The position numbers and the translations under genes are program-made. The notes beneath the pieces are model-generated. The model did not search any database and had not been told where the DNA came from. It saw only the letters and a program-made list of their open reading frames with translations. A DNA stretch of 57,812 bases, filler included, from Jimgerdemannia flammicorona (Eukaryota), in NCBI GenBank assembly GCA_003990765.1. It is 3 parts of 3 records of this genome, joined end to end, with 100 filler letters (N's around TTAATTAATTAA, not from the genome) between each part and the next. Parts side by side here need not be neighbours in the genome. Positions count along the whole stretch, not along the records: positions 1 to 19,211 come from RBNJ01001999.1; 2 more parts are not named here. One strand, given 5' to 3'. Positions 1 through 29,466 of the stretch are shown piece by piece. Position 1 is the first letter of the stretch, and every line of letters begins with the position of its first letter.

Positions 1-146
1 TTTTTTGCAAGGGGTATAAGAGAGGTGTTTGTGATTCCCAACAATTCATTGCATTATCTCAAAGGCGACGAGCCCCAAGACCACTCTTTAAGTGACAATA
101 TCTAATAAGCCCCCCTTCAACTCATAAAACTGACCTAACTGCTATC

Positions 147-1076
147 ATGAACTTCAGCAAATCCGAAGAGCGAAAACTCGAGACCCTCTTGCAGACGGAG
201 CTCCTCGAAGGCCCCCCCCCACCGTACGATCAACGAGTCCGTTCTTCGCCAGCCTCTAGCTCATCCAACAACTCCGCCTCATCGAGCGACGGACTTATCT
301 ACCCACCTGTTCCCCCGAGGGACACTATCATTGTCGTCAACGCGCCGACAGCCACTGGTCCGCGGCTGCAGTACCAGAACGCCACGCTCATTGTCGATCA
401 GGGTCAGCAGCCCAGGAAGCGTAGCTGGTTCGTGGACACAATCTCTGACGGGGAGGCGTGGCTGGCCGTTCTCTACTTCATGTTCGTCGGATTCCCGATG
501 GCCGTTTTCGGCTTTTGTTGGTGCATCCCTACCGTCATCGTAGGGTTGGTTTTTTGGATCTTCCCTCCTATCGGAGCCATCTTGTGGATAGGGTAAGCGC
601 TTGCAGCGTGCTGAAAATTCGTTGGAAGTCGCACACTTAGAACATTGACTCATCTCAAAATTTTCTGTGCCATCAGATTTGCCTACAGCTGGCGCTTGAC
701 CGCTCGCTTTGAGCTGATCACTCTCGAGATGTGCGGCAAACCATTCCGCCGCTACGACCCGCAGCGCCTGACCTACATCCGTCCCAGGTACTCCCCAGTC
801 TTACGCATTCGGAGCACAAACTCCCACGCCTGCGGCGTGCACGGCATGCTTTCGCGCATCTGGGATCTGAGCACGGATCCCCACACATTCGCCAGTGTGC
901 TGTACTTCATCGGGTTCAATTTCCTCTTCACCACTTTCGCCTTCTGCATCATCGTCCCGCTATTCTGCTGCTCGATGGCACTCATGATCTGCTGCATGCC
1001 ACTTTGCTGCATCGTCGCCAAGGAATTGGCCATGTATAAGATTAAGATAGCCCACAAGATGCTAATCCAGGAGTAA
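147..1076 (+). CDS. Two-exon membrane protein with an N-terminal PPxY motif and a 'putative sensor' (PF13796-like) transmembrane domain; exons 147-592 and 677-1076
   Basis: Intron 593-676 (GTAAG...CATCAG) joins the two ORFs in frame (..LWIG|FAYSW..). Contains PPPPY and two related hydrophobic blocks (GEAWLAVLYFMFVGFP; DPHTFASVLYFIGFNF). Domain call by eye. Confidence 0.7.
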
Positions 1077-2223
1077 GGACTTCATGGTTTAAAGTATATG
1101 TCCGACTCGCCTAAATTTATGTTGTAACTTGTACGAAATAAGGAATCACTCAACATATGTGTAAATTTTCTTTCGATATGGGTAACACTTTGAGTAAAAG
1201 TACTTTCGTGATGGGCGGGTATCCCATCCATGCACGCATGCGCCAAATTAGGTAAATAGCAAAGTTGCCAGGTTGTGATGAATGTTACCGATGAAATTGT
1301 TTGCTTAGGAATGCATATTGACCTATACTTAGAGATGCTTAGTCTATAATATAGTCAAAATTAGCTGCAAATATTTAAGTTCAAAAATCAATCTTATTGA
1401 ATGGAATTCTAAGCTCCAAATTCATCCAGCTGATTAGTTCACATTTTGAGCATTATATGATATCCAAATATAGAACTTATGTAACAGTTCATTATATAGC
1501 AACAAACTACTGGAAATTTCAATGGAATTTCCAACATAAATTCTAATGGAAATTCCAACAGAATTTCCAACATAGTAGTTACAGATACCACATATAGTAT
1601 AACTATATATATATAGATACATACATATATTCAGTATACCATATTTAGCCATAGCTTTAAATCTGTATAAATATCCTCTGTACTAACCTTAGCTCTACTT
1701 TTCTTAAATATAAAAATAAAACAGTATTCTTATCAAAAACCCTCAGATCTGACTTGTTAATGATTCCAAGTCTGATCAACTTGAGATATAAGTATGGTAC
1801 CTCTACTAGCATAAGAATCTGAAAGTAATATTTGGACTTTATCTCTACAATAGGCAGAAGGAACTTTACACTTCTTTATAAAACTTAGAACTTAGAGCTA
1901 ATAGTTATATCTTTAATTATCTATAATATATTAATTCTATTAATATATAGTTTTATTATAATTTAGTAGTAATAGAAAGTTACTTCTATTTATGAGTAAT
2001 TTTCTCTTAAAGAACTCACTATAAATATAGACAACTCTATAGAAAACTTAGCCAATACATATCAGAAGAGAGTATAGCTAATAAGAACAGACTGTAAATA
2101 GAACTAGAGTAGTATACTTCTTTGATATTATCTCTAGATAGTTATCAGAAAAGATCTAAAAATAAAAATGACTCTATAATTGTCTATATAAGTAATGATA
2201 CTTAGGATAAGCTATTATTAGAG

Positions 2224-4260
2224 TATAAGTACACAATCTCTAAGCCACTGAAATCACATGTTATCCTTAAAATAAATTTGGAAATCACATATAAGATCAT
2301 GAAGCTAAGTCAAACTAAAGTCATAGAATACAAAGCTAAGTCAACTTGAAGTTATAGAATATAAGATTTATATAAACAGAACCTTATCAATCAGAACTAA
2401 ATGCATATGTCAGATATATTAAAATAGAGAACTACAACAAACAAACAACTATAACTCTTGAATATATATATAACTATGACTACTGAGATCTACAACTATA
2501 TCTGTACTGACATTTGGAATGCTATTATTAACTGAGTCACACCTCCTCTGCTCCTTATAAATATCATAGTCTGACACCTCTTTACTTTATGGAAGTCTGA
2601 TGGAATGCTCTAAATATACTCAGCAAAGTCTACTAAATTGAATAAATCTCAAGCTACTACCAGATTAGCTATCTTCTAGAAGATATAGTTGAATACTACT
2701 ATAATATAGATATTATTCAGATATCTCAATACCAGAAGCTTATTACCTACAAACACTAAGAACTCTTTTATAAGTATAGTATTTTTATTCTCTATCTCTA
2801 AGTCACTACTACTAAAATAGTTGTCACTCTATCCTATGGCCAAATTGACAACATGGTACAAGAACTCAACCACAAGTATATTAAGTATGTTCAGACCATA
2901 GACAGAACCTTCCTGCACCCTAATGACTATATCCTGCAAATGTCTCAAGTTAGATATATCATGAAGGATATCTATGATATAATCTAGTTTAATAATGATA
3001 AAACAGAAGATAATAATCTCTCTGATACCAATATGACCTCCAGCTAAGGATCTCTACCAGCTCTGATCACTCTACCAACCTTGCTAATAAACTTACAATA
3101 GTTCATAACTACCTATAAGATTTATTGGAATAATGATCACTAGTATGAGTACTAACTTATATTTATACCTAATTACTTTAACTATGATGAAGAAACCAGA
3201 GAACATAATCTATATCTCCAGATAACCATTGAGATCAAACCAATAACCCTATCTCCTGAGTATAAACAAAACAAGCTACAGCTACCAGTATACTACAATC
3301 CTACAACTTATAGTACTATTACCTATAGAAGATATACAGACAGTGAATCTGAGGAAAGCAAAGACAATATACCTCTCCTTTGTCCACCAACTCTATATCC
3401 AGTATATGAGACAGATGATACTATTCTGTAAGATAGTAATATGGTCCCAATATATTATTATCTAAGCAAATAGAGAGAGGTAATCCAAGAACCACTCTTC
3501 CTAGATGACTATATCATTAGAGATAATATCATTAATAGTGATATCATTGAAGACTACCTAGATAGTATCTAAATCTATAGATAGCTTAGCAGTTATTAGT
3601 ATAATTAGAATAGTCTTATATGATATAATTGTATATTGACTTAGCAGTCAGATGATCTCTTGATATATTAGTTTATACTTATACTATATGACTATATTTT
3701 AACTCAATAAGATACTAAATATTATATTTATATTTAGTATAGTCCAGATAACCTCTTATTAGTATAAATATCCCCTCTCCTAGACCTCAGAAACTTAGAC
3801 AAAAATAGACTTAAATAGACAAAAATGACTCCTGAATACTTTTCCACAATATCCCTTTATACAACTACTCCTAGTATAGCAATATTATGAATAGTGAATA
3901 AATCTATTTAATAATTCACAAACTACTCTTAAGTAAATCTACATCTTATTAGATCTTACTTCTAACCATATTACAAAATTTTCTAATTAGATATTGTCTA
4001 TAGCAATATACCAATTCAACTAAGTTGGTCTTAGTTTCTTGAACTTCCTGAAATATAGAAAATCCTGAACATCTAGAATAAGTCTGAAAAAGGACTTTGG
4101 TTGAGATATCAATCTGATCTTAAAATCAATAAGTATAGAGGATGTACTTTATACAAAATTGATTTTAACCTAAAGAAAACAGTCTTCCAGAATATCCTGA
4201 ACTTCTAAAAAAAACCTTCCAGAACTATATAATGATACTTTTATAAGTAATCCTCTTATA
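2224..4260 (+). mobile_element. Solo-LTR-like element, heavily mutated copy 1 (2037 bp), containing a decayed ORF
   Basis: Termini TATAAG...CTTATA (mutated TGTAAG...CTTACA). Flanked by direct repeat TAGAG at 2219-2223 and 4261-4265. Colinear with 4953-7013. Confidence 0.85.
2476..3572 (+). pseudogene. Decayed copy of the LTR-internal ORF
   Basis: Begins ATGACTACTGAGATCTACAAC, like 5239. Aligns with 5239-6336 but has many C>T/G>A-derived stops. Confidence 0.75.
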
Positions 4261-5238
4261 TAGAGTATATACTATCTTAGTAGTCTAAAGATCAAGAGAC
4301 AGTAGAAATAATAATAAAGGAGATAAGTAATGTCAATTTAAGAAGAAGTAAAAATCTCAAGATAACTTTCAGAAATTATAAGATAGGTACAAGAAACTGT
4401 CTGATAAGGAATTTAAAGAACTCAAGAAAAAAAGAGTATGTTTTTACTATAAAAAGAATGGACATATATTCTATGAATACCCTAATAAGAAGACTAATAT
4501 AAATAAAGAATTATCCTTCTTTATATATTATCACTATAATAGAATATAATCTCAAAGAAATCCTCAAGAAGATCAAGGTCAAGAGATTCCACATCACTGT
4601 ATAAATTTTAAATAAAGTACATAAATCTGATACTAGCTATAATATCTAATTAAGTATAGAAATAACTATTGAATTAAGCAATTAAGTAACTATTAGCACA
4701 GATATCAGAATGCAAGTTCTCAAGAAAACCTATATTTGTCTTTATAGAAAAAAACAGTCTAGTTAAGAAGAAGAGACTCTATATAGCTAAAGGAGTTATA
4801 GACTAAGAATTCAAAGAAGAAATCAAGGTTCTACTATATAATACTGAACAGAAATCAGTTAAAAATTATATGTAAAAAACAAATTGCCTAAGCCATTATC
4901 AAAGTTATATATATATATATATAGTAATCTTGAAGTTAAAGAAATAAAAGAGTATAAGCGCACAACCTCCAAGCCACCGAAATTACACGTCACCCTCTGA
5001 ACAAGCCACTGAAATCACACACGACCTCCGAATAAATCTGGAAATCACCTGCTTGATCACAAAGCTGAGTCAAACCGAAGTCACAGCGCACAAAGCTGAG
5101 TCAATATGAAGTCACAGAACACAAGATCTACACAAACGGAACCTTACCAATCAGGACCAAATACATATATACTGAGCACCGAGACGCATCGAATCAGAGA
5201 ACCAAAACAAACAACAACCACAACTTCCAAACACACAA

Positions 5239-6336
5239 ATGACCACTGAGATCTACAACCGCATCTGCGCTGACATTTGGAATACCATTGTCAACCGAGC
5301 TACACCCCCTCTGCCCCTCATGAATATCCATAGCCTGGCCCCCCTCTACTTCATGGAAGCCTGATGGAATGCCCTGAACATGCTTAGCGAGGCCCACCAA
5401 ATCGGACAAATCTCAAGCTACTACCAGATCGGCCGCCTCTTGGAAGACATGGTCGAACACCACTACAATACAGACATGACCCAGATGTCTCAACACCAGA
5501 AGCTCATCGCCCGCAAACATCGAGAACTCTTCTATGAGTACAACACCTTTATTCCCCGCCTCCGAGTTACTACCAGCGAAATGGTTGCTACCCTGTCCTA
5601 TGGCCAAATCGACGATATGATATAAGAAATCAACCACAAATACCTCGAGTATGTCGAAACCACAGACAGAACCTTCCCACACTCTGATGACCACATCCTG
5701 CAAATGCCTCAAGTCAGATATGCCATGAAGGACGTCTACGATATAATCCACTTCGATGAAGATGAAGCAGAAGACAATGATCCCTCTGACGCCGACATGA
5801 CCTCTAGCCAAGGATCTCTGCCAACCCTGATCACTCCGCCAACCTTGCCGATGAACTTACAACAGTTCATAACCACATACGAGACTTATTGGGACAATGA
5901 CCACTGGCACGAATACCAACCCGTGTTCACCCCTGACTACTTCAACTACAATAAAGAGACCGGAGAACACAACCTGTACCTCCAAACAACCCTAGAGATC
6001 GAATCAACAACCCCACCACCTGAGTACGAGCGACTCGAACCACAGCCGCCAGCTTACTACAACCCCACTACTCATAGTGCTGTAACCTATAGAAGGTACG
6101 CAGATAGCGAATCCGATGAAAGCAAAGACAGTACACCCATCCTTCACCCACCAACACCTTATCCAGCATATGAAACAGATGATGCTATCCTGTAGGATGG
6201 AGATGAAGTCCCAATGTATTACTACCTCAGCTAACAAGGAGAAGTAATCCGCGAACCATTATTCCTAGATGACTACTTCATCAGAGATGATGCAATCGAT
6301 GGTGATATCATCGAGGACTACCCAGATAGTGCCTAA
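5239..6336 (+). pseudogene. ~365-codon ORF of unknown function inside the LTR-like element, broken by four in-frame stops
   Basis: Single frame from MTTEIYNRICADIW to IIEDYPDSA*. Stops at 5362 (TGA), 5623 (TAA), 6193 (TAG) and 6232 (TAA) are each one C>T from a sense codon. Copy 1 has CAA at the 5623-equivalent site. Confidence 0.8.
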
Positions 6337-6525
6337 ATCTATAAATAGTCTAGCAGTCATAGTATAGTTAGATTAGCCTTGTACGATGTGACTGTGAACT
6401 GACTCAGCAGTCAGACAATCTCTTGACATGTCAGATCACACTTGTACTACGTGACTACATTCCGACTCAGCAAGGCACTTAGTGCTACATCCATATCTAG
6501 CATAGTCCAGATAGCCCCTCACTAG

Positions 6526-6533
6526 TATAAATA
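6526..6533 (+). promoter_or_regulatory. TATA box of the LTR-like element
   Basis: TATAAATA followed by a C-rich tract, typical of retrotransposon U3. Conserved in copy 1 at ~3763. Confidence 0.55.
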
Positions 6534-7179
6534 CCCCCTCCCCCAGACCTCAGAATCTCAGACTAAAATACATAAGAACATTCCTGAATACTTCCCCACA
6601 ATATCCCTTCACACAACTACTCCTAGTATAGCAATATCATAAATAGCAAATAAACCTATTCCATAACCCACAAACTACTCTTAAGTAAATCTGCTCTCTG
6701 TTAGGTCCCACTCCTAACCCTGTCACGAAATTTCCTAATTGGGTATTGTCTGCAGCGATACGCCAATTCAACTAAGCTGGTCTTAGTTTTTTGAACTTTC
6801 TGAAATACGGAAAATCCTGAACATCCAGAACTAGTCCGGAAAAGGACTTTGGTTGAGACGTCAACCCAATCTTGAAATCAATAAGTGTAGAGGACGTACT
6901 CCATATGAAATTGATCTTGACCATAAGAAAATGGTCTTCCAGAACATCCAGAATATCCAGAAAACCCTTCCAGAACTACGTAACGATTACCTTAAAAAAG
7001 TAACCCTCTTACAAAGAGCTATTACTCTCTAATAAAGGAGAAAAGACTTTTGGATTAATAGAAAAGCACTCTGTTAAGATCAAGGAGAAGACTAAGGTAC
7101 AAAAGATTATTTATATTAAAGAACCTTAAGACTAAGATCAGGAATAATATCAGTATATTACTGATAGATATATTTTAGC

Positions 7180-8347
7180 TATAGCTTCTTTCTCTGCTAT
7201 CTTACTAGTTATAAGATTTGGTAGATAACCTTCTGAGTCTTCTTTCTTCTATTATTACCCCCTTTACCTTGAGTTGGTTTGCTATATCTATAAGGGTATG
7301 GTGGGAGAGAGACAATAGTAATGAGTTAGTATCAGATTGATATCTTTTTTACTTTTTTGTAATTTCTGATACCTTTGACTATATCTGGAGTATACTTATT
7401 TTGGTACAGTACTTTCTTCCTTTTGCTATTATTAATAAGGTATCATCTGATATATTATAGGCTATATGTATCAGTATAGGTTATTTGTAGATTCTCAGTA
7501 TCTATAATAGAGCCCTCTGAGCTTTAGTAAGCTTCTTGGTAAGTATAGTTCTGATATAGATAACTGCTTTTTGGGTAGAGTTAGGATGAGAGAAGAGATG
7601 GTCATTACAGATAGGCAGAAGAGTAATAACAATAGACTAGTAGAGTGCTAGGCTGGGGGTAGTCATCAGAGTTATAGTAGGTATTATCTTGATAAAGCCT
7701 TTTGATTGGCTGGTAGAGAGTGGGATAGTATAGGGACTGGTATTCTAGCTATATCCAACTAGAACTAAGAGCTGATGCAGCAATACAATTGAGGCCTACA
7801 GGTTTAGGGAATAGGTCCTCTCTTATTTGGCAATACCCAACTGGAACTAAGAGCTAATATAGTAATGTGATTGAGGTCTGTAGACTTAGGAAGTAAGAGT
7901 GGGACTTTTTTAAGCCTTAGCTCATATACATATTAGTCCTTTTGAGAGAGTCTTATATATAAGTCCTTTACTCACCTACTCTAAATATATTCTGTCTTCT
8001 ATTGACTAGTTAGGGGGTTTTTCTTTATTTTGGGCCTTTATTTGAAGTTCAGGAGGCTATTTCTTATTCAGTTCTAGTATTGCTAGATCTGATATATAAG
8101 TATACTCTCATGTGTAGTTATGATGATCTAGTCCTAGTAAATAGATAAGTCTAGTCTATATAATAGAAGTTGGTATATCTGATATATATAGTAGAAATAA
8201 TAGAACTGTAGGACAATTCAGTAGTTTAAATTAATGAGAGGATAATGTCTGGTAGATGGTAGGGGAGAGTTTTGGCTTATAGTCTAGGTTCTCTTCCAAT
8301 AAAATCTGCAGAACTCTGAGTCTATAAAAAAAAAAAAAAAAAAAAAA
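7180..8347 (+). mobile_element. ~1.17-kb poly(A)-tailed non-autonomous retroelement, copy A
   Basis: AATAAA then poly(A) at ~8298-8347. 14-bp TSD AGATATATT(T/C)TAGC at 7166-7179 and 8348-8361. Homologous end to end with 55868-57054. Confidence 0.85.
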
Positions 8348-9254
8348 AGATATATTCTAGCCAGATAATATTCTCATAGAATTAAGATATATATACTATT
8401 TCAAGTATATAGATGAATACATTATATATATCTTAGAATTCAAGAAGTATAAGCCAACTATTTCTAAATAATGAGATAAAAAAATCAAGAACATTAATGA
8501 CAAAGATATATAGAGAAGTATATATAAGATTGAGAATAAAAAGCTACTCTAGAAATAATTGCTATCTGGTAAGACAATTTTGAATATATCCACCTATAAG
8601 AAAAAATTAAAGAAAACTCTATTAAGGTCCTTATTGATAGTAGAGCAAGCAAGTACTATTTTAATAAGAAATAGTTATATAACAAATTCAACCTTAAAAT
8701 ACAAAGAAATCCAGAAGGCAATATTATTATATTTGGTAATAGAACAATTCAGAAACTCTCCAAAATTTGCAAGAACACACTTCTACAACTAGAAGACTAT
8801 ATCATGAAGTTGATCTTCTACACTATATATCTTCCAGGACATACATAACCTTATCCTCAGAAAATTCTGGCTCACATAAGAGATTCCTCATATTAACTGG
8901 TAAATCAATATAATCTCTCTAGGGTATATTAAGCTATAGCTAGAACAGACCAAGAAGAAAGTAAAACTCAAGTATAACATTATCTTTGTTATCCAAATGA
9001 AGAAGCTAATCCAGAAATCAGAACAATATATCTACATATATACTATCAAGAAACTATCAGTAGAAGAAGATAATGATAATCTTTCTGAACTATTGAAGGA
9101 TGAAGATAAAGAAGAAGAAAGCCTTCAAGAACTACTTAAAGAATACAAAGATGTTTTTCAAGAACTCTAAGGACTACCACCATCCAGGTAGTAGAACACC
9201 ATTCTAGGAGCATACCCTCTCTATTATGAAATCTACCAACTAGCTTATCAACAA

Positions 9255-10320
9255 GTATCTGATCACGAATCCAATAACACCCCTCCAGCTCAGGAAATAA
9301 TCTAACTGCCATCATGAAATTCGGAGAGACCTTCCTGTGGACAGAGCTCCTCCAAACCAACCACCGTACCATCAACAAGTATCTGATAACGAATCCAATA
9401 ACGCCTCTCCAGCTCATGAAATAATTTACCTGCCATCATGTAGTCCGGAGAGCCCCTCTTGCAAAGAGAGCTCCTCCAAACCCCATCCATCAACAAGTCA
9501 GCCTCTAGCGCATCCAACAACTCCGCCTCATCGATCCGCTTTTTTGCAGAAAGAGCTCCTCGAAACCACCTCACCAACGTACGATCAACGGGTCAGTTTC
9601 TAGCCCATCCAACAACTCCGCCTTATCGAGCGACGTCTCATCGAACACACTGGCATTGACATCAATGCGCCGACAGCCAATGAGTTTAGCTATTTCGTGG
9701 AGTCAATATCTGACAGGGATGCGTGGCTGGTCATTCTCTACTTCATGTCCATCGGGTTCCCGATGGCCGTCTTCGGTTTTTGTTGGATCAGCACTACCTA
9801 CGTCGTAGGACGGGTGCTTTGATTTTACCCTCCGATCGAATACCCCATGCGGATAATGTAAGCAGTTGCAGTATGCTGAAAATTCGTTGGAAGTCGTGCA
9901 CATTAGAACGTGAACGCATCTCTTGTCTACAGTTGACGCATGGTCGCCCGCCTTGAGCTGATCACTCTCGAGATGTGCGGCAAACCATTCTGCCGCTATG
10001 ACTCGCAGCGCCTAACCTACTCTTTCTGGACATAGACTCTTGTACCTGCAACTTGTGCGAAATGGGTTCGTTCAGTTCGTTCAGCTCAGACGTGAACAGG
10101 ACATTACACCACTTACTCCTTCTGCACCATTGTCCCACTGTTCGCCTGCTTGCATGTCACTTTGCTGCATCGTCGCCAAGAAATCCGCCATATGTAAGAT
10201 TCAGTTAGCTAATGTACGAAATAAGGGATTGTCATGGCCGCATCAAGTATCGCTCGATATGGGTATGATTCGCGTGCGCCACGTCAGGAAGCTATTTCGT
10301 AGATAGCGAAGCTGTCAGGG
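9255..10320 (+). pseudogene. Rearranged duplicate of the 147-1076 gene, with its 5' segment tandemly reiterated
   Basis: Matches the 5'UTR, exon 1, the intron (GTAAGCAGTTGCAG), exon 2 (GAGCTGATCACTCTCGAGATGTGCGGCAAACC) and the 3' flank of the first gene, with deletions and frameshifts. Confidence 0.85.
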
Positions 10321-10973
10321 AATTTTCCCTTGTGAAAAAAACTAGTTACCATTCAAGGATCTCTGATTAACGATGGTTAATGATCCCTATTGCCTATTGA
10401 TGGCCAATGCGCACATCCATGTGGTCATTTTCTTTCTCCACTGCTTTTGTTTATTTGGCGTCGTGCAATCTCACTTGGCCCTTTTTGTCTTGAGTATAAT
10501 ACTCTGGAAAGCGTCATAGTTGCCAGTTTCCATATTTGTAAAAATACATACATATACGTATGTACCACTCTGCTATCCGCGAAACGCGACATTTGTGCTT
10601 GCGCTCACGAGACTATACTCCGAACGGTCTGAGGGCGGACTCCAAATGCGCAGTAACTTTAATTCGAGGATGTATGAAACGCAATCGGAATTATCAAAGT
10701 TACTGCGGTCTGTCCAACATGAATATCTTGATCCCTGATCGGTGTCATAACTACTCATATGGTTGATGATCAGCTTCAGCTGATGCATTTTACATTCACC
10801 TTGTCGAGCGAGGTGGCCCGTGAGTCACATCTTTCAGGACCAGTCGCCATGGAATTATTCGGGTATATACACAGGCAATTCTATTTTAGCTTCGATCATT
10901 GTATACACCAACAATATAAAATCCCCCACACAAACTTTTCACCATTAACAATTCAACAATCCGCGACCAAAAC

Positions 10974-12274
10974 ATGAGGGCCATCTCAGACTTCAGCATC
11001 ACGGTGGACAACGAGTACATTGACTTCTTCGGCCCGCCAAATCCAAGCGTGTCGGCCACACTCCGCGGCAAGATCCAGCTCGTTCTGACCAAACCGCTGA
11101 CGATCAAGAACCTCTCGTTGAAACTCACAGGGAAGTCGGCAGTGGCCAGCGTCTACTACTACTTCAAGGTGGTGAAGCGTGAGGACGCCGTCTTGGCCGA
11201 GAACCGCGAGCTACCCGAGGGAACGACTGAGTTGGCCTGGCAGTTCAAGTTGCCAGGGGATCTGCCGCCGAGCTTCAAGATCAACGTAGGTTCCTGCGAC
11301 TATCAGCTATCAGCATTGCTGATCTGCGACAAGACCCTCTTCGGCAGCAACAAGACGAGAAGGTACAAAGACATACACATTAGTCGCAGTCTGATATCCA
11401 GTCTGGATCTTGCGCAATCCTTGCCTCCGATGGTGTACAAGGGCAAGAGGGAGGGAATCATCGAGTACAAGTTCTTCGTCCCAAAAGTGATTTGCACGGA
11501 CGAGACCGAGACCCACTTATCGCTGCAAATCAAGACATTACAAGATGTTGGACGGGTGAAAAAGGTGGTCGTCACCCTTGAACAGAACGAGCGCTTCCTG
11601 TGAGTAAAGCTTCGCATCAGATCACTAGATTGTTCAGCTTCCTGTTCTGAGCACTCTCCTAATCATTACGAACATACACATTGCGAATAGTAATCCCTGG
11701 GGCGCTGCAGCCAGAGCACCAGAACAAAAACAAGCAGCATCGGATTCGTCTTCAAACTCCGATGCCAGCGGCACCGGGATCGAACCCGGCGGCTCCAACC
11801 GTCACAACCAATCCTTCATGAATACAGAAACAACACCAGGAGGTTAGTCAGTCAGTCACCCCACAAATATTGCCCAATGGTTAAACGTTATACCTTCCTG
11901 CAACCTCCATCTAACCGTTATCCTCACATCTAGAAACGGAAGCATACGCCAACTACTCCGACCCAGCGAACCTGGATGCGACCGTCTCGATCACGCTTCC
12001 GCTCAACAAGGTCAAATTGCACCCACGAATCAAGACGACAAGCCTGGAAGTGACGCATCATATCATGGCGCGCGTCGTCTTCGTTCACGAGCAAGAACAG
12101 AAGGACCTCTGGGTTCACTTCCCGATCCCTGTATCGATGCTGCCGTTTGCGCCGCCTGGGATCGGCGATATCCCATCGGTGTCCACGATAGAATATGATT
12201 TACCGACATACGATACCACGATGGAAGGAACTGAATTACCATCGTATACTGGGGCAGAACCGCCAGGAGGATAG
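10974..12274 (+). CDS. Alpha-arrestin (arrestin-related trafficking adaptor); exons 10974-11599, 11691-11842, 11934-12274
   Basis: Arrestin_N-like LRGKIQLVLTKPLTIKNLSLKLTG and FKLPGDLPPSF..GSCDYQLSA. Arrestin_C-like LEVTHHIMARV. C-terminal LPTY and LPSY motifs. Both GT-AG introns keep the frame. Confidence 0.85.
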
Positions 12275-12673
12275 TCAGAATGGGAAGGTCTGAAAAGTCG
12301 AAGCTTGTTCCTCGTTCCTATTTATTGGCCGTTGTGTATTTTACATCCTTCTCTGCAATGCATAAGATATCACAAATCAGAATAGAAGTAGCACTTTTTA
12401 ATTGGAAAGTCGAAAATTAGAATTGCAACGTTAACGAATGGCGGAGATACCTTCAAAACCGGCAATATCGACAACTTCCAGACTAGTTTCAAACATTACT
12501 TTGGAGATATATTACACATACGGACGTTCTTAAATCCGCAATAGATAGACTATGTACAAGAGACGTAGCAAACATATCTGACAACACGGCTAATTATTAC
12601 TCGTTAAAATACGCTTCCCATCACACCTTCCATCTTGTAATCCCAAAGTCCAGAGCACCGCCCCATCGACCCT

Positions 12674-15600
12674 TCACTCTCCCCTTGCCTTCCTCTTCCC
12701 ACTCCTCCTTCTCTTTTCTGGCTTCCCTTCCGGCGCTTCCCTCCTTCCCATCGGCACGCCCTCGCTCATAGCCGTGGCCGCCAACGCGCTATCCCTCGCG
12801 AGAGCGTCGGACCGCGCTCTCCCACGCTCCATGTCCATCTCAATTCTCTCGTCGCCTGAACCCGGGATGGGGGAATGGGGGCTGGAGTCGGTATCCGTGT
12901 CACTGTCGCTGGGGTCATCTGCCGGGCTGAGCTTCTTGCGAGCAGTGTAGGACTCACGTTCGATGGCGACCTTTACGAAGGTCGGCATGTCGGGGATCAA
13001 GTAGGCCAGAAGGAATTTGAGGAGGAGGACGGCGTGCTGGAGGTTGAGGGGAAGGTCGGAATATTGGTGGGTGAGCGGAGAAGGGCGAATTATTGAAATT
13101 AGTCGCAAGCGTAAAGATATCGGAGACATAAGCAGGCGTGTCGGCTACACCTTCATCTCAAAAGTATCTCGGGCCGTACCCAAACTTACGCCACTCAACC
13201 AAATTTACGTGCATCCCCGATCGAACAATCCCATCCCAACACACCTCAAACACGATCAAAAAGCCCAACCGGCTGGCCAGCAGGTTCTCCTGGCCAAACC
13301 TGTTAATTAGTACACGCTCCATATAGGCGGACTGGAAGGCAATAATTGCGCCGTTGGTGAGGACCGAGATGATCGACAGGATATTCAGGATCTTTTCCCA
13401 CATGCCTTGGAATATATGTATATATATATATTCAGTGGTTAGATTATATTAAGTTGGAGGATCAGAAAGAGAAGGGCGCTGACAAGAAGTGCATACCAAT
13501 ATCTTGAGCTTGGTATGCGACAGGACGCTGATATGCGGTTAGGAGCTAGAAACAAGTTGCAAACCAACGTTATACACTAACACAGAGAAATATTTTCACC
13601 CGCCCTATTTTTAACCTAACCTCACCTTATACGCGTCGCTCCTAACTTCGATCACGTTGTTGAGCAGTGCAAGCAGGGGCGCGAGCGGGAACGCGGCAAC
13701 AAAGAGCGAAACGAACCCGAACTGTACGACCATTTCGTTATACTCGGTAAAGATGGAGTCGTCATAAACAGGCAGGTGGCCGTCCTCAACCCATTGCGGG
13801 ACCATGGTCGGGTGCGGGGAGACCAGTGGGTTGCTTGCGGGGAGACCATGCTGCTGGGTGACGTCGTGGTGTGCATATTCACCCTGGTGGGGGGGGTGGC
13901 GCGCGAGGGAATCACGCTTCTTGTAATAGAGTTTGGTGATCCAGCTGTGGAAGCATTTTGGGAGAGGGGATGGAAAGCTTGGTGAGAAGAGAGGACACCG
14001 TAAGCAATGTCCCGTGCATCAAGCTTACCAGGAAAAAACTCTAAATAATGCCCCCACTCACGGTATAAACACCTCCTGCCCCTGCGCGATCGCCTGCCTG
14101 CCGACGAAGGTAATGGCGAGCTGGATGGTCAGCTCGGTCATGCACGAGCCGTACTGACACTGATCGTCCAACTCAGACTGGCCGAGCAAGTTCCGCCCAA
14201 ACTAGTTAAAGAAAAAACAAAGTTCAAGCATGTCAAAGACAAATCAGGATTATAAAAATAAGAATGGATATCGATACTCGATTTTAAGGCTACTGGGGTT
14301 GTGGTACGTACCTGCTGTTTAAAAATCAAGATGTAGAAGAGAGTGGAGTAGAAGTTGATGAAGCTGAAGAGGTAGTGTTTGACGATAAGCGAGCCTGAAA
14401 TTTTGGTAAGAAAAGTGCGTCCGGTTGAAAGAGGGAATTAGCTTGAATATATGGGTCATCCAACGACCAGCACCACATACAACAAATAAATTTAGATCGT
14501 AATAAATTAAAAAGAGAGAAAGAAAATCTAACGCACCCTCATACATCGTCTGCGTCCGATGATTCTCGAAATTGGTCAGGATCACCGCAAATCTCGCATA
14601 CACCTACCAAACCAGACTCTGACGTGTTAATAATACAACTTAAAATAGAGCATCTTACTATTTCCCAAATCGTATATCGTAATATTGCCCTTCACAGCGC
14701 CCAAAGGCCCTCCCAAATCCTTACCCTATTCAAAAGCATGATTGTGGCCAGATTGACCATGGCCGATACCACGGCGCTCCAGTACCCTGACAGCGCGTGT
14801 ACGGACCGAGTCCAGGCAGTGAAGACTATCAGCGTGCCGACCGTGCATAATACGATAAGTATCTGAGGCGAGTGACGAGACGCGGGTGGGGAAATGGATG
14901 GTAAGCAGAGACATCTCAGACATGTCAATGGACAAGGGGTGAACGCCGCTGGTTTCTCCTTCCATGAGCCGATAAGCTTGCCGTTAAGTGCCAACCCATG
15001 ACACCATAAAAATATCGACTCATATCGCCCAAACGTCTCAACTTCGTCTCGTCTAAATCACATACCGAAGCCCCCACGAGCATGCCCGATACTACAGCCT
15101 TGGTCAGCTTGAGGCTCGATGGATAGTAAAGTTCGTCACGCATCGTCACGGGCGAAATCCGAACCGTCGTTCCGTAGTATTCGGGGCGTGGTTGTTCCTG
15201 TTAAGCATACAGCAGGTGGTGTTAAGAAAATGGATTGAGAGAGCGTGAAATTGTAACAGAAAAAAGCGAAGATAAAGTAAATAATTGACGAACTGTAAGA
15301 TATGGTAAAACACCAATATTTCTTCCTCACCTCCTTCTCAAACTCCAAAACGTCCCATTCCCACTGCAAAATATAATTCCTCCTTTTCCAGAACTCGAGG
15401 AACAAGGTCGCTAATCAAACCCGACGTAAACAAATAAATAGCAGATAAGTCATTTATTCTCAATCAAAGGTAGTAAATTTCCAAAATCCACAACTTCCAA
15501 ATAAATCCCCTCCCCCCTCAATAAACTAAATAAAATAAAATCATAACTCACTCCACACGCTCATGAAGAACGCGAACGGCGCCGTTGTGGCATTATCGAA

Positions 15601-18209
15601 CACGCGCGAGATGATCTGGGTGGCAGGAATGGTCGTGGCGGCGGTGGAACCCGTTGCAACGGGGAGTTCGGGGTAACTTTTAGATAAGGTAGGTAAAAAG
15701 GGGAGGAGGAAGAGGAGGAGGATGAGAAAGCGAAGTAACTATGGAACAAAGGGGGATGTGAGATAATGAGTTATGAAAAGTACCTCGAGGTCATGACGAC
15801 GCCGTAAACGAAGACACCGAAGCCGACCGGGGCAGCGATCCAAAGCCAAGTCGTGTAAAAGCCTGGGGGGTTTGATGAGAGTGGACGGCGGGGCATGGAG
15901 AGGACAGCATAAATGAAGGCGCTTTGTCTGTCATTCCTGTTCGATAAAACCATCCTGAAATAATTCAAAGCCCGGGACCGGCATCTCATACACACCACCT
16001 TCCTTACAGAATTAACCAAATTGGACCTCTTATCCCCTCTCCTTTCCACCAGCCCCTTTACTCACCCAACCATGCGAAATAGATTGCGACCTTCTCGCCG
16101 AAATACATCCGCACCTCTTGTAATGGCTGTACCCTTGTCCACCTTAGTACCCAATTGTTATATAACCACTCGCGCATGCGCCTCGGCTTGGGCAGATCCG
16201 GTGCATTGAACTCCGCCTTCGCGTCCAATCCCGGCTTCGCGTTTAATCCCACCTCCGCCTTGGCCCTTTGTAGGTAGACGGATCCTTCAACGCGCGCGGC
16301 ATCCTCGGCGGAGTCGAGGTTAGGGTCAGTTGAGGGAGTAGATGGATAGAGGACGTAATGCGAGGGCGTGTCCTTGTAAGGCCCGTCGTGGAGGGTGTAG
16401 GCAGCGGTGTAGACCTTCTCGTGGAGGAGGTAGCGGAGGCCGGTACCGCGGAGCTGGGACAGAGTGTGGTGCTTCTTGATCTCGGCGTGGATGAGGATGT
16501 TGTGAACCTGGATGGCGAGTGATCCGGCACGGGTGCTTATGTGAGACGAGTGGAACCGGCAACCATCTACCACCCGAGCAATCTCGATACGTACCAGCAA
16601 ATTTCTCTTTCCCGAGTCCCAAAATCTGAGCGCGATGTCCGCCCAGGCCATTCCCTGTTCGGCGCCCTCGAACTTGTACAGATCCTCCGGCTTGAAGAAA
16701 GCGGATTCTTTGCGCACGTCGATGGCGTGGCCCAGCAGCGTCGGGAGTGGCGGTGGAAGGTGATTGATGGTGAAGGTGACAAGATCGGTCGGGTGGAGCG
16801 GTGGGAAGAGGGAGGACTGCATGGGCAGGGAGGGAGGGAGATGTTAGATGGCTAAATGCTAAGCCGAGGTCTGTAAATCCATGATTCGTTTTCCACTAAC
16901 ATTCGTCCTTCAAACCGATTCACCTCGCCCTAACATAGCTCTTTCTTCCCATCTCCACCCATCGTCAACCTACCTGCAACCTCCTCTTGAGCCTTATCTC
17001 ATGCGCGGTGCGACACAACGTATTGAACGGTGCGAGAATCTTGACGTACATGACGTCGTCCCTGTCGATACTGGGCTCATGTTCGACGACGAGCCCCTTG
17101 CGCAGTAGGGCGATCTCGAACTTTTGGCGCTGCTTCTGGTTCGCAGGGGTGGATCCCGCCTTGGCGGTGGAGAACTTGAGAACGTAGTCGTAATGGCATT
17201 CGGAACCGCGGTAGACTAGCTGGATCAGTGCGTCAGAGAGGTCCTGGGTTGGCGGTGGGAAGTGGAGGGGAGCTGAGTAGGGACAAAGATCTGATTAGAT
17301 GAGAAACGAGGGAGGAGTGTAGCGAGCAAAAGAAAAAGCAAAAAAAAAAAAAAAACTCAAAACTCGAGAGGTACCAAAGTGATTGATGCATTCGCGCATG
17401 GACTTGTACGGGTTCTGATCCCGCCATTCAGTGATACGGTCGAACCTATCGGCGTCATCCGGCTCGAGAAGGAAAATCTCGCGCTGGCCGATGCAACGGA
17501 CGTAGCCCGGGAAGTCCGGGGTCGGGGAGGACGGCTTGTTGGGCTTGCGGATGGAGAGGTGGCGCAGGATGCCGTCGACACTGCGGCGCGAGGAGAGCGG
17601 CGAGCCGTTGCTGGCTTCGGGCGGCAGCGCGGTCGCTGAGAGGGTTTTGTCTCGAAGCGGGGAAGGATGTGTGGGGTTTGGCAATTGCTGATGGGAAGAA
17701 GGGTTGACGACGTGGGGGCGAGTAGAGTTCGTGGAAGGGTAATCGGGTGCGGAGTGAATGTAGGGGAGCTAGGGGGGAGAGGGTCGTAAAAACGGGGTAC
17801 GTGGTGAGATTTCGGACTTTGGTGCGAGCGTGTCTCTCAGTTCCACCCATTTTCTCGCAAAAAAAGTACTCACCCCATTACTCCCCATCCTCGCCATCCT
17901 CCACTGTGCCACGGCGTTTTCCTGCGCCTCGATCGACATATCATTATCGTTGTCTGAGTCGTCCGTCAGCGGCCTCCTAGAGTACTCATCGCCCTCGCTA
18001 TATCTCCTCGGTCTCGGTCCAGGGGTAGCCGGCCTCGGCGGGGGCGACGGCGCCCTTCGGAACGGCACATGCTGCTCCCTGTTGGAACGCGTCCGTTGCT
18101 GCTGCTGTCTCGTACGGGTACGCTGTCTTCGCGGCGGGAGCGGGACCGGGTAGGCCTCCTCGGACGAGAGCGACAGTGTAGCGTCTGTATCGGTGGGTAG
18201 GCTGTACAT
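12674..18209 (-). CDS. Anoctamin/TMEM16-family Ca2+-activated chloride channel or scramblase, multi-exon
   Basis: Motifs [99 protein letters not shown]. First exons traced in frame: 18209-17874, 17768-17375, 17272-16974. Start codon tentative. Confidence 0.92.
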
Positions 18210-19211
18210 GACTAAGGTTTGGGTGTATTTGTTGGGGGGGGGGAGACATTCTTGTGGTCTCGTGGGGTGTTAAAGGGGGCTGGACACACACAGGAACAAA
18301 ACAGGACCCAGAGCACTGTAGCGTGACTGGCAGCATCGCGTTTTCGGGACACGCGTGACGAGTCAAAAGCTGTTTTTGGTATATAGTTTGCATCATTTGG
18401 AGGTCACTTTGCTACTTTACACACGCTGCGGAAAAATCTTATTTCCAATGAGATGCACTCTCAACATGTAACCTATTTTCATTGTCAACATTGAGGAATA
18501 TTGATGTGCCGATATTGCCCTTTATATTTTGACGGATTTTCGGGCTGAGTATTTTTTAGAGATTCCGATTCGGGTAGTAATTTTTTACTGAGCCTGTTGC
18601 CACTCCAGTCCCGGAATTGCTAATGTCGTCGACTCTTTCGTCAGAGTTTCGGATGGACTGAGCCATCGAAATTGTATAGTATTAACTGTATCCATTAAAA
18701 TGAAATCGCCAAATCTATAGTAAAAAATTGTATTTTATAATACAATAAACTATATATATTTAATAATAAACCTAGTTATTATATCATATATTATCTAAAT
18801 TATTATAAGTCAGCTATTGTTTATCTCAAAAAATATATTATTATTTTTGCCTATATTTATGTACAATATTAATTTAATATAAATTTTATAGATTAAGAAA
18901 ATATGGATATGAGGAGGGCGATGTACGTGCAGAGGAAGAGCGCAGTGACCCAGCTGATTGTGGCAGTGAGGCTGCCTTTGGAGGCGAACGGAAAGCCGAA
19001 GAATGTGTAAGGATGACAGATGTTTGAATGCTATAAAATGAGCGTGATTTGGAGAGAGTGGAGAAATATGATGTTTGGATAGTATCGATGAGCACGTGGT
19101 CATTCAAAATAGCCTGATTATAAGCCAGGAAGGAAGGTAGGGGCCGATTGTCTGTTCAAATTTTTGTCTTGAACAGTTTCATTATGTCAAAGCAAATCTC
19201 TTTTTTTTTTT

Positions 19212-19311
19212 NNNNNNNNNNNNNNNNNNNNNNNNNNNNNNNNNNNNNNNNNNNNTTAATTAATTAANNNNNNNNNNNNNNNNNNNNNNNNNNNNNNNNN
19301 NNNNNNNNNNN
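19212..19311. other. Assembly gap with an artificial TTAATTAATTAA linker
   Basis: N-run interrupted by a six-frame stop linker. Confidence 0.97.
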
Positions 19312-19372
19312 TATAATATAGATTGGTAATTAGATAATAAAGTGAAAGTCTAAGTAACTATAAAAAAAAAAA

Positions 19373-21240
19373 GAGAAGGATATATACTGACTATATTTCT
19401 GAACAAGGAGGGTTATAAGATTGATGAGACAAAGAAAGCTAAATTAGCAGTAGTGGCTGGGAAGTATACTGTCTTCTAGTAGAAGTAATGATATAGATTA
19501 TAGCTTTAGCAGAGGGTATATACTGAATACAAAAAGAAGATAGAGACTAAGGATGATAAGGTAATTACTGAGATACTGGCTAGATTAGAGGTAAGAAAGA
19601 GGAGGTTATCGCAGAATATAGTCCAAACTCGACCCAAGAGGAGATAAGTATGGAACTATGAGAAGACTAGAGATACTCTATAATATTACTTTCCTATAAA
19701 CAGTATAACTAATATTTTCTTATTGAATATGAATGGTTTGAGGGGCTCTATAAGATATAGAAATATTTTTACTTAGCTGTAGAGATTAGATATAAATCTT
19801 TTTCTATTATAGAATATGTATTATAAGAGAAACTTAGATGAATAGAAGTAGGTAAAGAAATGAGGCAGTATGGTAGTTTAGAGGGATAAGGTGGGAATCT
19901 TGGTGTAAAAAGACAGAGAAGATCTTTGTGCAGTCAGGAGTTGGAGTGAGCACTTAGTCTGAGAGGAGTGGTGGAGATCTGGATAGGAGTTAGTAGTTGT
20001 CAGCTCTTATTACTATCTTATAGTTAGAGAGGACAGTGTGGAGTAGACAAATGGTCTTTATGAGTATGATATACTTGCTGAGACTGATATAGATATACTT
20101 AGTAGGAATTTCAATATGATATAGAATATACTATTGAATAGAATTGATGGAGGAAGAAGTACTGGAGGCTAGAGTAGCAGTCTAGATAACTGAGAGGAGA
20201 TGGAGTATCTAAGTTCTTTAGTGGATACTAGTAGGATATTATGGAGAAACAGAAGGATTTATACTCACTGAGTAAATAGACTCAGAATGAGAATTGACTG
20301 GATACTGACTACTGACTACTGAGAGATAGATATCTGGATAGATCTGACAATTAAGTAGTACTTATGGTCAGATCATTGAGAACTAATAGAGTATAGTTGA
20401 TTTGGGGAGAGTGGGGATAGACCTGGATATTGATGTCTTAATTTCTCTTTATTAGTAGAGACAGAGTTATGGAAGGCTTAGATAGTAGATATTAGATCAA
20501 AGATTATTAGCTGAAATTATAAGAGGTCTCCTATAGGGGTCTGCTGAGTAAAACTAAAGAAGGCTACTAGGATATATTGAGATGAGACTGATAAGTTCAA
20601 AGGAGTATAGCAGTAATAGAGAGTGAGGTGGGCTTCTTACCAGTTGGAGATATTACAGCTAGAATGAGCTGGTATATTGGACTGAGAGATTATAGAAGAT
20701 TGATAGCTAAAATGAGCTCAGATAAAGGTAGAGAAGTTAAAGAGAGTGTTAAGAAAGGAGGAAAAGATATAAGTTCAGAGTATGGTAGCTTAATTATAGT
20801 AGTAGAGGCTTAAGAAAGGTAAGAGGTCTACTAGTTTCTGTCTAGACTTCTTTGGGCAAAGAAGGTATAGTAGTGGTAAGATAGAGTATTAGATAAAGAG
20901 GGTACTCTGGTGAATAAAATATAGTAGATCTTGGGTTCTTTGAAGAATTAGTAAAGAGATCTATAAAGTAAGGAGAAAGAGAGTATAGATGAGGAGGCTA
21001 TTGAGTACTCTCTAGGGGATTAGCATCTCTACTAGTTGATGATCTTGAGAATCTAATTCTACTAGTCTAGAAGAATGAGATTCTGAGTATCCTATTAGCT
21101 ATAAAATTAGATACTACTTCTAGTAAGAATGGCCTGTTCTGGGACTTTTGGAAGAAGATAGTAGGAGTTCTGGGAGTATTAGGAGAAATGAGAGCACTTT
21201 GCAATATTGTCCTCATGTCTAAAGAAGACAAAACCTCAGT
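19373..21240 (+). mobile_element. Old L1/Tx1-like LINE, 5' part (end of ORF1, endonuclease, start of RT); continues at 27141
   Basis: TNIFLLNMNGLRG at ~19708, RIDWIL, WSDH. The reading frame ..RQNLS|LVVLLYKNK.. resumes at 27141. Confidence 0.8.
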
Positions 21241-27127: not shown

Positions 27128-27140
27128 ACAAAATCTTAGT

Positions 27141-29212
27141 CTAGTAGTATTGTTATATAAGAATAAGGATAGGAAAGTAGATTGGAGAAATTGAAGACTG
27201 ATAATCTTTTGGATATAGACAGAAAGTTGATCACTAAGATAATTATTGTGAGGCTGCAGAAGATGGCTCAATAGATATTAGATACTGAGTAATAGAGCTT
27301 TATTAGAGATGAGATAGTATAGATATATAGTATGATTGAAGAGATAAGGACTAGTAGACTAGATGGGAGTTAGTTTTTCTAGATCAAGAGAAAGCCTATG
27401 ATTGAGTTTAGTGAGTTTGACTGAGGAAGATATTAGAGAGAATTAGTATCTCTTACTGATTCTGAGTTTTAATAATTAGTCTATTAGCAAATAGTAGGGC
27501 AGCAATTTTATATAATAATCATTATAGTATTATATTCTCATTAGAGAGAGGAGTTCCCCAGGGGGGTCCACTGTCTCCTATCCTATATACTTTGTTTTTA
27601 GAGCTATTTATAAATAGAATTTATTATAAGGTTTCAGAGCTTCTGGTCCTAAAAGTGATCTGAAAGATTGGAGTCTTTACAGATGATATAGTAGTTAGAC
27701 TTGGCTCTATTGCAGATATGGGTATACTAAGAGAAGTTGTAAATTAGTATGAAGAGCACTCTGGGGTAAAGCTTAATTAATATAAGTATGAGATAATGGT
27801 ACTGAAGAATAGTCTTACTCAGAGCTTAGTAGAAAAAGAAGATAGTAGAATAGAGAAATGTCTTTTGGAGTTAGGGGAGACACTACATTTCTCTTACTAA
27901 GTAAGTATCAATTTTGAATATCTACTGACTGCTAAAGTTCTGATATCTGGTATACTACTTGAATTTTCCTATATAGGTGGTAAGAAAGTTACTTAAAATA
28001 CCTAAGAACTGAATTTGGACTAAGAGAAGAAGTTAGATAAGTTAGGAGATCTTGACAACTCTAGTGAGCAGAAGAGGAGTTGGTCTGATAGACTTTCTAA
28101 AGAGATTGTACAGTCTTAAGACCTAGTAGTTAAAGAGAACTATCAAGCTATAAAGAGATAGATATATAAGTACTATTGATATAAAGGGTCTGGGAGGTGA
28201 GGTTCTCTTCTAGAGATTTCTCTAATGATCTGCTATTTATAATTAGATTAGAGAATAGTAGGTGCTTATAGTACTGGAGATTCTGGTGGAGAGTAAAGGA
28301 TACTTACTATATTAGTTTATACTAGTATGGTAGCAAGAGTGAGACTCAATGGAATTTTATAATATAGAGATAAGATAGACTTCTGTTAGATAGTATACTA
28401 TTGGTAGACTTTAACATTGATAAAAGTATTAAGTATCAGTAGAGGGTGAATTAGAATCTGTAACCTGTAGACTGATAGATAGCAGATATTAGTAAGGCTT
28501 GGAACTGAACTAGAGTCTGGTTTTAGAGTACTGAGATACAGTAATAGCTTTTTTCTAGGTTCTAGATAATATAGTGATATATTTTAAGAAGAAATATTAT
28601 ATTAAACTTTTAGTCAGGATATTTGATAGTGGGTGAAAGTTTTGAGTATAAGGACTGCTTTAATATAAGATAAGAGGAGAGAATTATACAAATATCTAAA
28701 CATTGGCTAAGGAAGTATAAGATACTTAGTAATTTCTAAAGAAAGATTAAAGACTATCTGAGAGTGAGACAGTATATTGGTAAGAGAGAGAGTAGATAGG
28801 AGGATTTGAAGAAGTAGTTGATAGAGTGAATTAGTAATAAGTAGTTTACTATTAGATAGATATTAATAATATAGATAGAGTTGACTGAATACCAGCTATA
28901 TATATTTGAAAATAAGAGAATAATAATATTAGAGAATAAGATAGTGAGGTAAAAGAGACTGATAGTAGACATTCTGTCTAGCTGATGGAGGGGGGGAGTC
29001 CTTAAGAGAGGTTACTATAGAAGTAATTTATGAGAAGTATTGTAGATAGATTACTATAGATAATAGTATAGTTATTTTTAAGAGTAAGAGTAGAGGAGAG
29101 AGAGTGTATTAAGGTAAGGTAGAGTAGAATAGATTAAATTGGGGCAGGTTGGATTGGGGTTATTAGTGTGATATGAGAGCTATAGACTAGTTAATAAAGT
29201 GAGTTTAAATAA

Positions 29213-29240
<28 letters not shown>
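27141..29240 (+). mobile_element. Old L1/Tx1-like LINE, 3' part (RT to tail)
   Basis: LDQEKAYD, GVPQGGPLSP, FTDD. 3' AATAAA...AACTA followed by a (TA)n tail. Confidence 0.85.
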
Positions 29241-29244
<4 letters not shown>

Positions 29245-29324
29245 GATATAAGTAATGGATACAAAGGTATAAAGATAGTGTGTCAAATGTGTTTGAATAT
29301 GTATAAAAAAAGGATGATGTTATC

Positions 29325-29466
29325 AAAGATTCAAATTCCAAAAATTTAAATTGATCTAGATTAATTTAGATTGGATTATAAGATAAATCAGAGTTAATTT
29401 AAATCTATTACATAATGAATCTGATTTGAATCTCATCTGAATAAATTAATCTGTTTGGAGAACTAC
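29325..29466. repeat. Fragment related to the terminus of the foldback/TIR element family
   Basis: GATTC/GAATC-rich, ending TTTGGAGAACTA; compare GGAGCACTA at 33326 and 42982. Confidence 0.4.

Follow-up and report, generated by a model that had tools for sequence, protein, structure and literature searches.

How a protein gene can come to lie inside a long terminal repeat (LTR) is the question raised by a stretch of DNA from Jimgerdemannia flammicorona (NCBI GenBank assembly GCA_003990765.1). LTRs are normally non-coding and are treated as control regions; they are masked before gene finding, and therefore a gene inside an LTR would be invisible to routine annotation. The whole stretch that was analysed, here called the window, has a length of 57,812 nt (57.8 kb) and is joined from three parts of three records. 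Within its first part (positions 1 to 19,211, from RBNJ01001999.1) two related units of about 2 kb are found, each containing a long reading frame. We read both units as solo LTRs of one retrotransposon family with a protein gene borne in the U3 region of the LTR, left behind by two insertions into an older decayed element, and assign to this reading a probability of about 0.7.

The 2-kb unit as a long terminal repeat

The two units are colinear and identical at 76.2% of 2031 alignment columns. With lengths of 2.04-2.06 kb they are the only copies of their family in the window, and both stand alone (Table 1). Unit 1 has the termini TATAAGTA and CTCTTATA, unit 2 the termini TATAAGCG and CTCTTACA; both start with TATAAG, and the last letters are CTTATA in unit 1 and CTTACA in unit 2. 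In contigs of three public sequencing runs (X2, X3 and X17, with loose ends at 4955) the LTR starts with TG, so that the A in the start of the window units is a G>A change. Counting these contig starts, the family has short inverted-repeat ends of the form 5'-TG..CA-3'. Each unit is flanked by its own perfect target-site duplication (TSD) of 5 bp, a length within the 4-6 bp that characterise LTR retrotransposons. In these respects the original prediction, which was made from the sequence alone and had described colinear units of about 2 kb with TSDs of their own, was confirmed.

Parts of unit 2 were found in 20 public runs of 13 studies, the best shares of the unit being 0.29 in X1 and 0.23 in X2 (soil metagenomes) and 0.21 in X3 (organism A); none of these runs is listed as an RNA run. 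Contigs of X1, X2, X3 and X17 were placed on positions 4400-7600 at 85% likeness (3717, 60, 440 and 307 pieces, respectively). Those of X1, X2 and X3 cover the entire unit 2, and contigs of the four runs continue into other sequence at its ends, each junction being known for at most 30 letters; the flanks that the unit has in the window (4400-4934 and 7075-7181) show next to no contig cover in any of the four runs. At the 3' junction, GCAACCCTCTTACA followed by ACTTGGTAGCAGCAG, five contigs of X1 and three of X3 were obtained with an agreement of 0.97-0.99. Here, ACT stands directly behind the LTR end ..CCCTCTTACA and is succeeded by TGGTAGCAGCAG, a 12-mer which starts with TGG three bases past the LTR end and has the form of a tRNA primer-binding site (PBS). 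The motif presumably resembles initiator tRNA-Met; no tRNA genes were found within the window. At the other end, three X3 contigs carry AAAGCTAAGAAGGGGAGAGT, a polypurine tract (PPT), directly before the TG start. Other flanks precede the LTR start in contigs of X2 and X17, as is expected of solo LTRs or of outer ends.

A search of JGI metagenome contigs with the LTR end and the PBS motif delivered two AT-rich contigs, both from other families. In the metagenome contig L002, an LTR end, ACT and TGGTAGCAGCAG lie 130 nt ahead of a gag frame that contains the domains Ty3_capsid (5.9e-16), Retrotrans_gag (5.2e-15) and zf-CCHC. L002 supports the reading of the motif as a PBS and, being a contig of a different family, hints at a possible Ty3/gypsy affinity of the family described here. 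The contig L001 (1-306, minus strand as fetched) becomes abruptly GC-rich and bacterial-looking after an LTR end, the PBS motif and a CA-rich tract, and may be an assembly chimera. Viral contigs were scanned for DNA motifs as well, with no match.

The PBS and PPT junctions show the 2-kb unit to be, by its structure, a true LTR of an LTR retrotransposon. The retroviral-type LTR that had been proposed from the window is thus upheld by contigs of other runs, and the alternative offered along with it, a mini-element mobilised by an integrase, is no longer needed. A direct repeat joining both ends of one unit, as in a whole terminal-repeat retrotransposon in miniature (TRIM) or large retrotransposon derivative (LARD), was not found. 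In a further observation, an X3 contig links LTR position 6637 to the LTR start (4962) via 14 extra letters; this is what an LTR inserted into a copy of the LTR would give.

Table 1. Units, target-site duplications, frames and candidate signals, by position in the window
Feature	Position	Strand	Remarks
Unit 1, heavily hypermutated solo LTR	2224..4260	+	GC 29%; 76% identity to unit 2; ends TATAAG..CTTATA
Unit 2, lightly hypermutated solo LTR	4953..7013	+	GC 45%; 5' TA is TG in other copies
Left TSD of unit 1, TAGAG	2219..2223	+	direct reading
Right TSD of unit 1, TAGAG	4261..4265	+	direct reading
Left TSD of unit 2, AAGAG	4948..4952	+	direct reading
Right TSD of unit 2, AAGAG	7014..7018	+	direct reading
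LTR-borne gene wreck in unit 1	2476..3573	+	13 in-frame stops; 1-base frameshift near 2565 (after about codon 30)
LTR-borne gene wreck in unit 2	5239..6336	+	365 codons and stop; 4 in-frame stops
Three GAAATYACA boxes (31-nt spacing), then 31-nt tandem repeat (5058-5124)	4979..5124	+	candidate upstream activating region
Candidate LTR promoter TATAAATA, end of U3	6526..6533	+	kept in unit 1 at 3763; presumed role
Candidate poly(A) signal AATAAA (R region)	6649..6654	+	kept in unit 1 at 3897; presumed role
Zinc-knuckle remnant (..VCFYYKKNGHIFYEYPNKK..) from the gag of an older, hypermutated retroelement, in the host DNA between the units	4436..4492 (about)	+	frame-2 translation by eye; no Pfam match

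The frame within U3 and its product

The ATG of the frame lies 286 nt from the LTR start and its stop codon 190 nt before the candidate TATA box, which would place the gene wholly in U3; the AATAAA of the LTR follows about 310 nt past the stop. Both signals are present downstream of the frame in both units, in agreement with the U3-equivalent position that had been predicted for it. Contrary to the original prediction, however, the frame is not open. In addition to the many lesions of unit 1, unit 2 contains TGA at codon 42, TAA at codon 129, TAG at codon 319 and TAA at codon 332, and its longest open run is 189 codons. These two solo LTRs are therefore no longer able to supply the protein, and both gene copies in the window are dead.

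Hypermutation makes transitions only, and for this reason selection was tested on transversions. Codon position 3 accounts for 19 of the 30 transversions in the frame (p=7e-4), and 14 of the 30 are synonymous, about three times the expectation of 14.6% (p=2.8e-5). Amino-acid changes among transversions show a roughly five-fold deficit, and the replacements are mostly conservative (I/L, E/D, S/T). Insertions and deletions (indels) amount to one per 1096 sites within the frame versus eight per 956 sites outside (p=0.015). This pattern of substitutions shows the frame to have been once under purifying selection on the protein, which had been suspected earlier from synonymous differences other than C>T and is now borne out by the transversions.

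Relatives of the protein were sought among 5.8 billion proteins and 1.84 billion representatives, and two true ones, both public metagenome proteins, were detected in all. P0002, with 247 residues encoded on a 998-nt ENA contig, contains no stop, has its C-terminal end at the same place as the frame and is identical to residues 115-364 at 160 of 250 positions (64%). In a simulation of neutral drift, with substitutions only and to 65% identity, 87 of 5000 frames remained open. P0003, with 128 residues on a 1180-nt JGI contig, shares the start of the frame and is 90% identical to residues 1-128. At the places of the unit 2 stops the relatives have Arg (42), Gln (129, found in unit 1 as well) and Trp (319), so three of the four stops can be explained by single C>T or G>A steps. 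Another candidate, P0004 (E 7e-4), was rejected as a chance match, being a repeat protein with 40 residues at 30% identity. Pattern matches to the frame protein were obtained in metagenome contigs (339), viral contigs (12) and prokaryote genomes (19), and none of them was confirmed; protein searches for longer and shorter forms found no fused form and, besides P0003, no further piece.

Run X17, which is guessed to be an RNA run of organism B, leaves the frame almost uncovered at 85% likeness (5256-6325), and 6540-6967 is covered deeply; neither this gap nor those in the flanks are taken as evidence. A contig of this run at 6334 has a diverged part that ends in frame, at the last sense codon, with NLINKYSDSI (read by eye), where P0002 has DLIAEYPDSI. 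It therefore seems that a divergent version of the frame is present in the LTRs of organism B. The LTR family together with its gene is shown, on the evidence of such contigs and relatives, to be present in other organisms.

The predicted protein has an isoelectric point of 4.3. Its first 114 residues form a nearly neutral part for which helices are predicted, and residues 171-365 are acidic and rich in Tyr and Pro (43 Asp/Glu, 7 Lys/Arg, 26 aromatic residues and 22 Pro). The blocks kept in P0002 include LQQFITTYETYW, TGEHNLYLQTT, HPPTPYPAY and EPLF.D.YFIRDD. No Pfam family was matched at E<=1, neither a Gag, Pol or Env model nor the superantigen model of mouse mammary tumour virus (MMTV), and the earlier statement that the frame has no gag/pol motif can be retained; profile searches of NCBIfam and PDB gave no match either. 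AlphaFold2 predicted helices only and with low confidence: the mean predicted local distance difference test (pLDDT) score was 34 over the full length and 51 when residues 1-128 were modelled. A search of the ESM Atlas with P0002 gave no usable match, and the Atlas model has a pLDDT of 0.39. In its composition, the acidic aromatic C-terminal part looks like an activation or adaptor region.

Competing readings of the gene and the units

If the family to which these solo LTRs belong has a gene in U3, the genomic RNA would carry this gene once, at its 3' end and behind the PPT. Reverse transcription copies U3 from the RNA 3' end into both DNA ends and would in this way place the gene in both LTRs, and a U3 housing an entire protein gene would account for an LTR length of 2 kb. 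The gene would be in effect a 3'-terminal accessory gene which is doubled with each new copy and retained in every solo LTR. Recombination between LTRs would have reduced each insertion to a solo LTR; unit 1 would be old and hypermutated together with its surroundings, and unit 2 would have arrived later and been lightly mutated since.

The gene may in addition form a transcription unit of its own. Candidate signals are the repeat boxes and the tandem repeat near the LTR start, two TGAGTCA motifs inside the tandem repeat (5066 and 5097; TAAGTCA in unit 1), a TATA-like ATATATA at about 5167, about 70 nt before the ATG, a CA-rich leader without ATG (5110-5238, the last 129 nt before the gene) and the AATAAA of the LTR. 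From these motifs we infer an own transcription unit in every LTR. A step further, and in our view doubtful, is that every LTR including the solo ones is a self-contained gene whose product acts in trans on behalf of the element; it might activate transcription from the LTR, for instance, or serve as a decoy for a host factor of silencing or hypermutation. If this were true, the gene dose would climb with each insertion and outlast the loss of the element. The weakest step of the model is a role of the acidic product in trans for the element, as adaptor or activator, which we regard as similarly uncertain. For the anti-silencing factor that the original prediction had considered there is no support; the two copies have been hypermutated themselves.

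The most probable rival, well below the favoured reading, concerns expression. It says that the gene lacks a separate promoter and is expressed only from the 3' end of the element RNA, by splicing or a subgenomic message in the manner of retroviral 3' accessory genes, the solo and 5' LTRs being silent. Its position directly behind the PPT is indeed that of a retroviral 3' gene, and the promoter motifs are weak consensus matches, with TGAGTCA not enriched. Against this rival, the 286 nt before the ATG are repeat-rich and conserved between the units, and their final 129 nt are free of ATG. An unlikely reading is that the frame is a captured passenger gene, of host or foreign origin and useless to the element. 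It agrees with the missing relation to retroelement proteins and with the rarity of the family, two true relatives among the 1.84 billion representatives. No cellular homologue was found in the protein searches, however, and the pattern of codon positions together with an open relative of 64% identity shows a protein that has been kept during the divergence of its copies, which a useless passenger would not be.

Whether the units could be the two LTRs of one element depends on how they differ. A global alignment comprises 2017 shared sites with 464 differences, 403 of which are transitions and 61 transversions, and 9 indels. At 352 sites unit 2 has C or G where unit 1 has T or A, and the reverse holds for 51 sites, a seven-fold unequal load of hypermutation. 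Cytosines were hit most often in CpG (74%), followed by CpA (53%), CpC (30%) and CpT (16%), and the TpA/ApT ratio is 1.13 in unit 1 versus 0.52-0.76 in the genic DNA of the window. The directional excess of C>T and G>A, the dinucleotide preference and the high TpA/ApT ratio are the marks of repeat-induced point mutation (RIP), and most differences between the units are RIP-like C>T/G>A hypermutation. A preference of CpG above CpA is unlike the pattern of RIP in Neurospora. Decay of a RIP-like kind would by itself make a filamentous fungus the very probable source of the genome. The GC content is 28.5% in the left flank, 29% in unit 1, 24% in the 692-nt spacer, 45% in unit 2 and 31% in the right flank, and the step from 24% to 45% falls exactly at 4953. 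Unit 2 was therefore inserted into DNA that had been mutated beforehand, and unit 1 decayed with its surroundings.

Against this background we consider it improbable that a single element, cut down to an interior of 692 nt, has the units as its 5' and 3' LTRs, with inner 5-mers that match the outer ones by chance. The outer 5-mers, TAGAG and AAGAG, are equal at four of five places, and the left flank of unit 2 is PPT-like, with a score of 23 that is reached by 0.4% of the background positions (9827 positions; the score tolerates G>A and C>T transitions and allows two 1-base gaps). Yet both pairs of inner and outer 5-mers are perfect, for which the chance in DNA of the AT-rich local composition is 0.0023 per pair and 5e-6 for both pairs, and the letters after unit 1 are unlike a PBS (score 10-14, as high in 11-49% of the background). 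Moreover, the LTRs of one element start out identical, which is difficult to reconcile with 61 transversions, 9 indels and the unequal load, just as the GC jump at 4953 is difficult to reconcile with a shared history. The units are thus shown, by what their sequences record, to be independent insertions, each apparently collapsed to a solo LTR, as the original prediction had argued from their separate TSDs. The right flanks seen so far are all NAGAG (TAGAG, AAGAG and, in an X2 contig, GAGAG; n=3), a possible sign that purine tracts are preferred as targets.

Two further readings are very improbable. One takes the unit not for an LTR but for an independent, non-autonomous element that an integrase mobilises; it would fit the lone copies in the window and is made very improbable by the PBS-like motif 3 nt past the end, by the PPT before the start in other runs and by the lack of terminal direct repeats of its own. 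Equally hard to believe is that the frame was never coding and is conserved as cis-acting LTR sequence, for which the two broken DNA copies could be cited: transversions gather at third positions, synonymous ones reach three times their expectation, indels avoid the frame and the 247-codon relative is open.

Several points weigh against the reading of the units as solo LTRs with a U3-borne gene. No full-length element, with gag-pol between a pair of these LTRs, was seen, the window containing none, and no intact copy of 365 codons was seen among the window copies and the database relatives. P0003 finishes at residue 128, exactly before the TAA at codon 129 of unit 2; this stop may be widespread in the subfamily, or the contig of P0003 may merely end there. 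The 21 nt to the left of unit 2 (4928-4952) are more PPT-like than 99.6% of the background, a likeness that the solo-LTR reading can ascribe only to chance or a preference for certain targets. The own transcription unit is suggested by motifs only, and the 12 TGAGTCA matches in the window, with 9.05 expected, are no enrichment. Finally, the protein has no family, confident fold or basic region, which makes its proposed role a guess, and a hint of a late domain was dropped, as P0002 lacks both of the PPxY motifs that the window copy has.

The rest of the window and known systems

The DNA around the units is, to judge from its remnants, an old decayed retroelement. Its stretch 7184-8337 matches 55872-57050 within the window, and Pfam searches in six frames of 1-12000 gave an arrestin gene only, the host retroelement being too decayed for a match. 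To the right of unit 2, the piece 7182-7288 of this element is deeply covered by contigs of X1, X3 and X17, and contigs of X2 and X3 exit it at 7283 with identical letters; it therefore belongs to another repeat family that is common to those organisms. The AT-rich island of 8 kb containing both LTRs is bracketed by a direct-order repeat of a GC-rich, gene-like stretch with membrane-protein-like frames (189-1051 and 9544-10209, about 76% alike). With 37 transitions and 25 transversions over 333 sites, this repeat does not show plain hypermutation.

Other features lie further away. In 18500-29800 and 50300-57812 the + strand contains 11-12% C and 29-30% G, with a GC skew of up to +0.55; the two blocks are about 65% alike in several pieces, and the first includes a reverse-transcriptase remnant on the + strand (24903-25556, RVT_1 4.6e-10). 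By these marks, the low-C blocks are decayed retroelement copies with a one-sided base composition; none of 39 minus-strand frames tested had a Pfam match. Part of a gene, with BTB and SPRY domains, is present as a tandem duplication (33489-35115 and 35525-36994, 74-84% alike), within which a small piece is inverted (34047-34249). The 790 nt at 42124-42913, in AT-rich DNA, are their own reverse complement at 83% and consist of two direct copies of 378 nt that are 90% alike.

Among known systems, the sag gene of MMTV is closest in position: it is a frame within U3, so that each LTR contains it, as does the 3' terminus of the genomic RNA, and it is unrelated to gag, pol and env. No sequence relation was found by Pfam, and therefore sag is an analogue by position alone; furthermore, the host in our case is no mammal and has a hypermutating, fungus-like genome. 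Sag is a membrane glycoprotein, whereas the product described here is acidic and shows no signal or membrane segment by eye. HIV and SIV nef and the tas/bet genes of foamy viruses are 3' accessory genes downstream of pol that share sequence with the 3' LTR. They begin upstream of the PPT and overlap U3, whereas here the whole gene and a further 286 nt lie inside the LTR, and no similarity of these genes to the frame was found. Tas of foamy viruses is an activator with an acidic C-terminal end that is expressed from an internal promoter, and our working model for the product of the U3 gene leans on this analogy.

Outside of retroviruses, the Cassandra TRIM of plants contains within its LTR a 5S RNA gene with an own promoter, which is multiplied together with the LTR. 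The Cassandra gene encodes an RNA and comes from the cell; the gene in our units is an orphan protein gene. A further extra gene in a fungal LTR retrotransposon is brtn, which Zhao et al. in 2011 reportedly described for Boty-like elements of Botrytis cinerea; going by the title of that work, it is antisense and in this respect differs from our case. The additional open reading frames (aORFs) described in plant LTR retrotransposons are placed outside the LTRs, either ahead of gag, behind the 5' LTR, or in the interval from pol to the 3' LTR. The likeness to our frame is in their nature: aORFs are extra, mostly orphan frames beside gag and pol, kept in lineages without an assigned function (PMC7264820). 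In this review, phrases that place aORFs "within", "in" or "inside the LTR" do not occur (PMC7264820). The crapaud family of Podospora resembles ours in being fungal, in its numerous solo LTRs and in being subject to RIP, and it varies mostly in U3; its LTRs, however, measure 339-443 bp and are non-coding (PMC10787394), in contrast to the gene-bearing LTRs of 2.04-2.06 kb reported here.

Full-text literature searches for a protein gene inside the LTR of a fungal retrotransposon found none. The "LTR ORF" of a Talaromyces paper was considered as a precedent and rejected, since it means ORFs of LTR elements and not ORFs within LTRs. The layout with a gene in U3 is known from retroviruses, and no fungal retrotransposon with this layout came up in these searches. 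If every LTR is indeed a self-contained gene, the family would provide the first case in which a fungal LTR retrotransposon encodes an accessory gene in U3, and a retrovirus-like "complex" genome plan that has arisen outside of retroviruses. A gene in U3, with two copies per insertion and survival as a solo LTR, would be a different way to spread and dose a protein. Selection on an orphan LTR-borne protein offers a testable case for accessory functions of fungal retrotransposons, and RIP or other genome defences could be among the things that such functions act upon. The case also shows that retroviruses are not alone in having accessory genes within or next to the 3' LTR.

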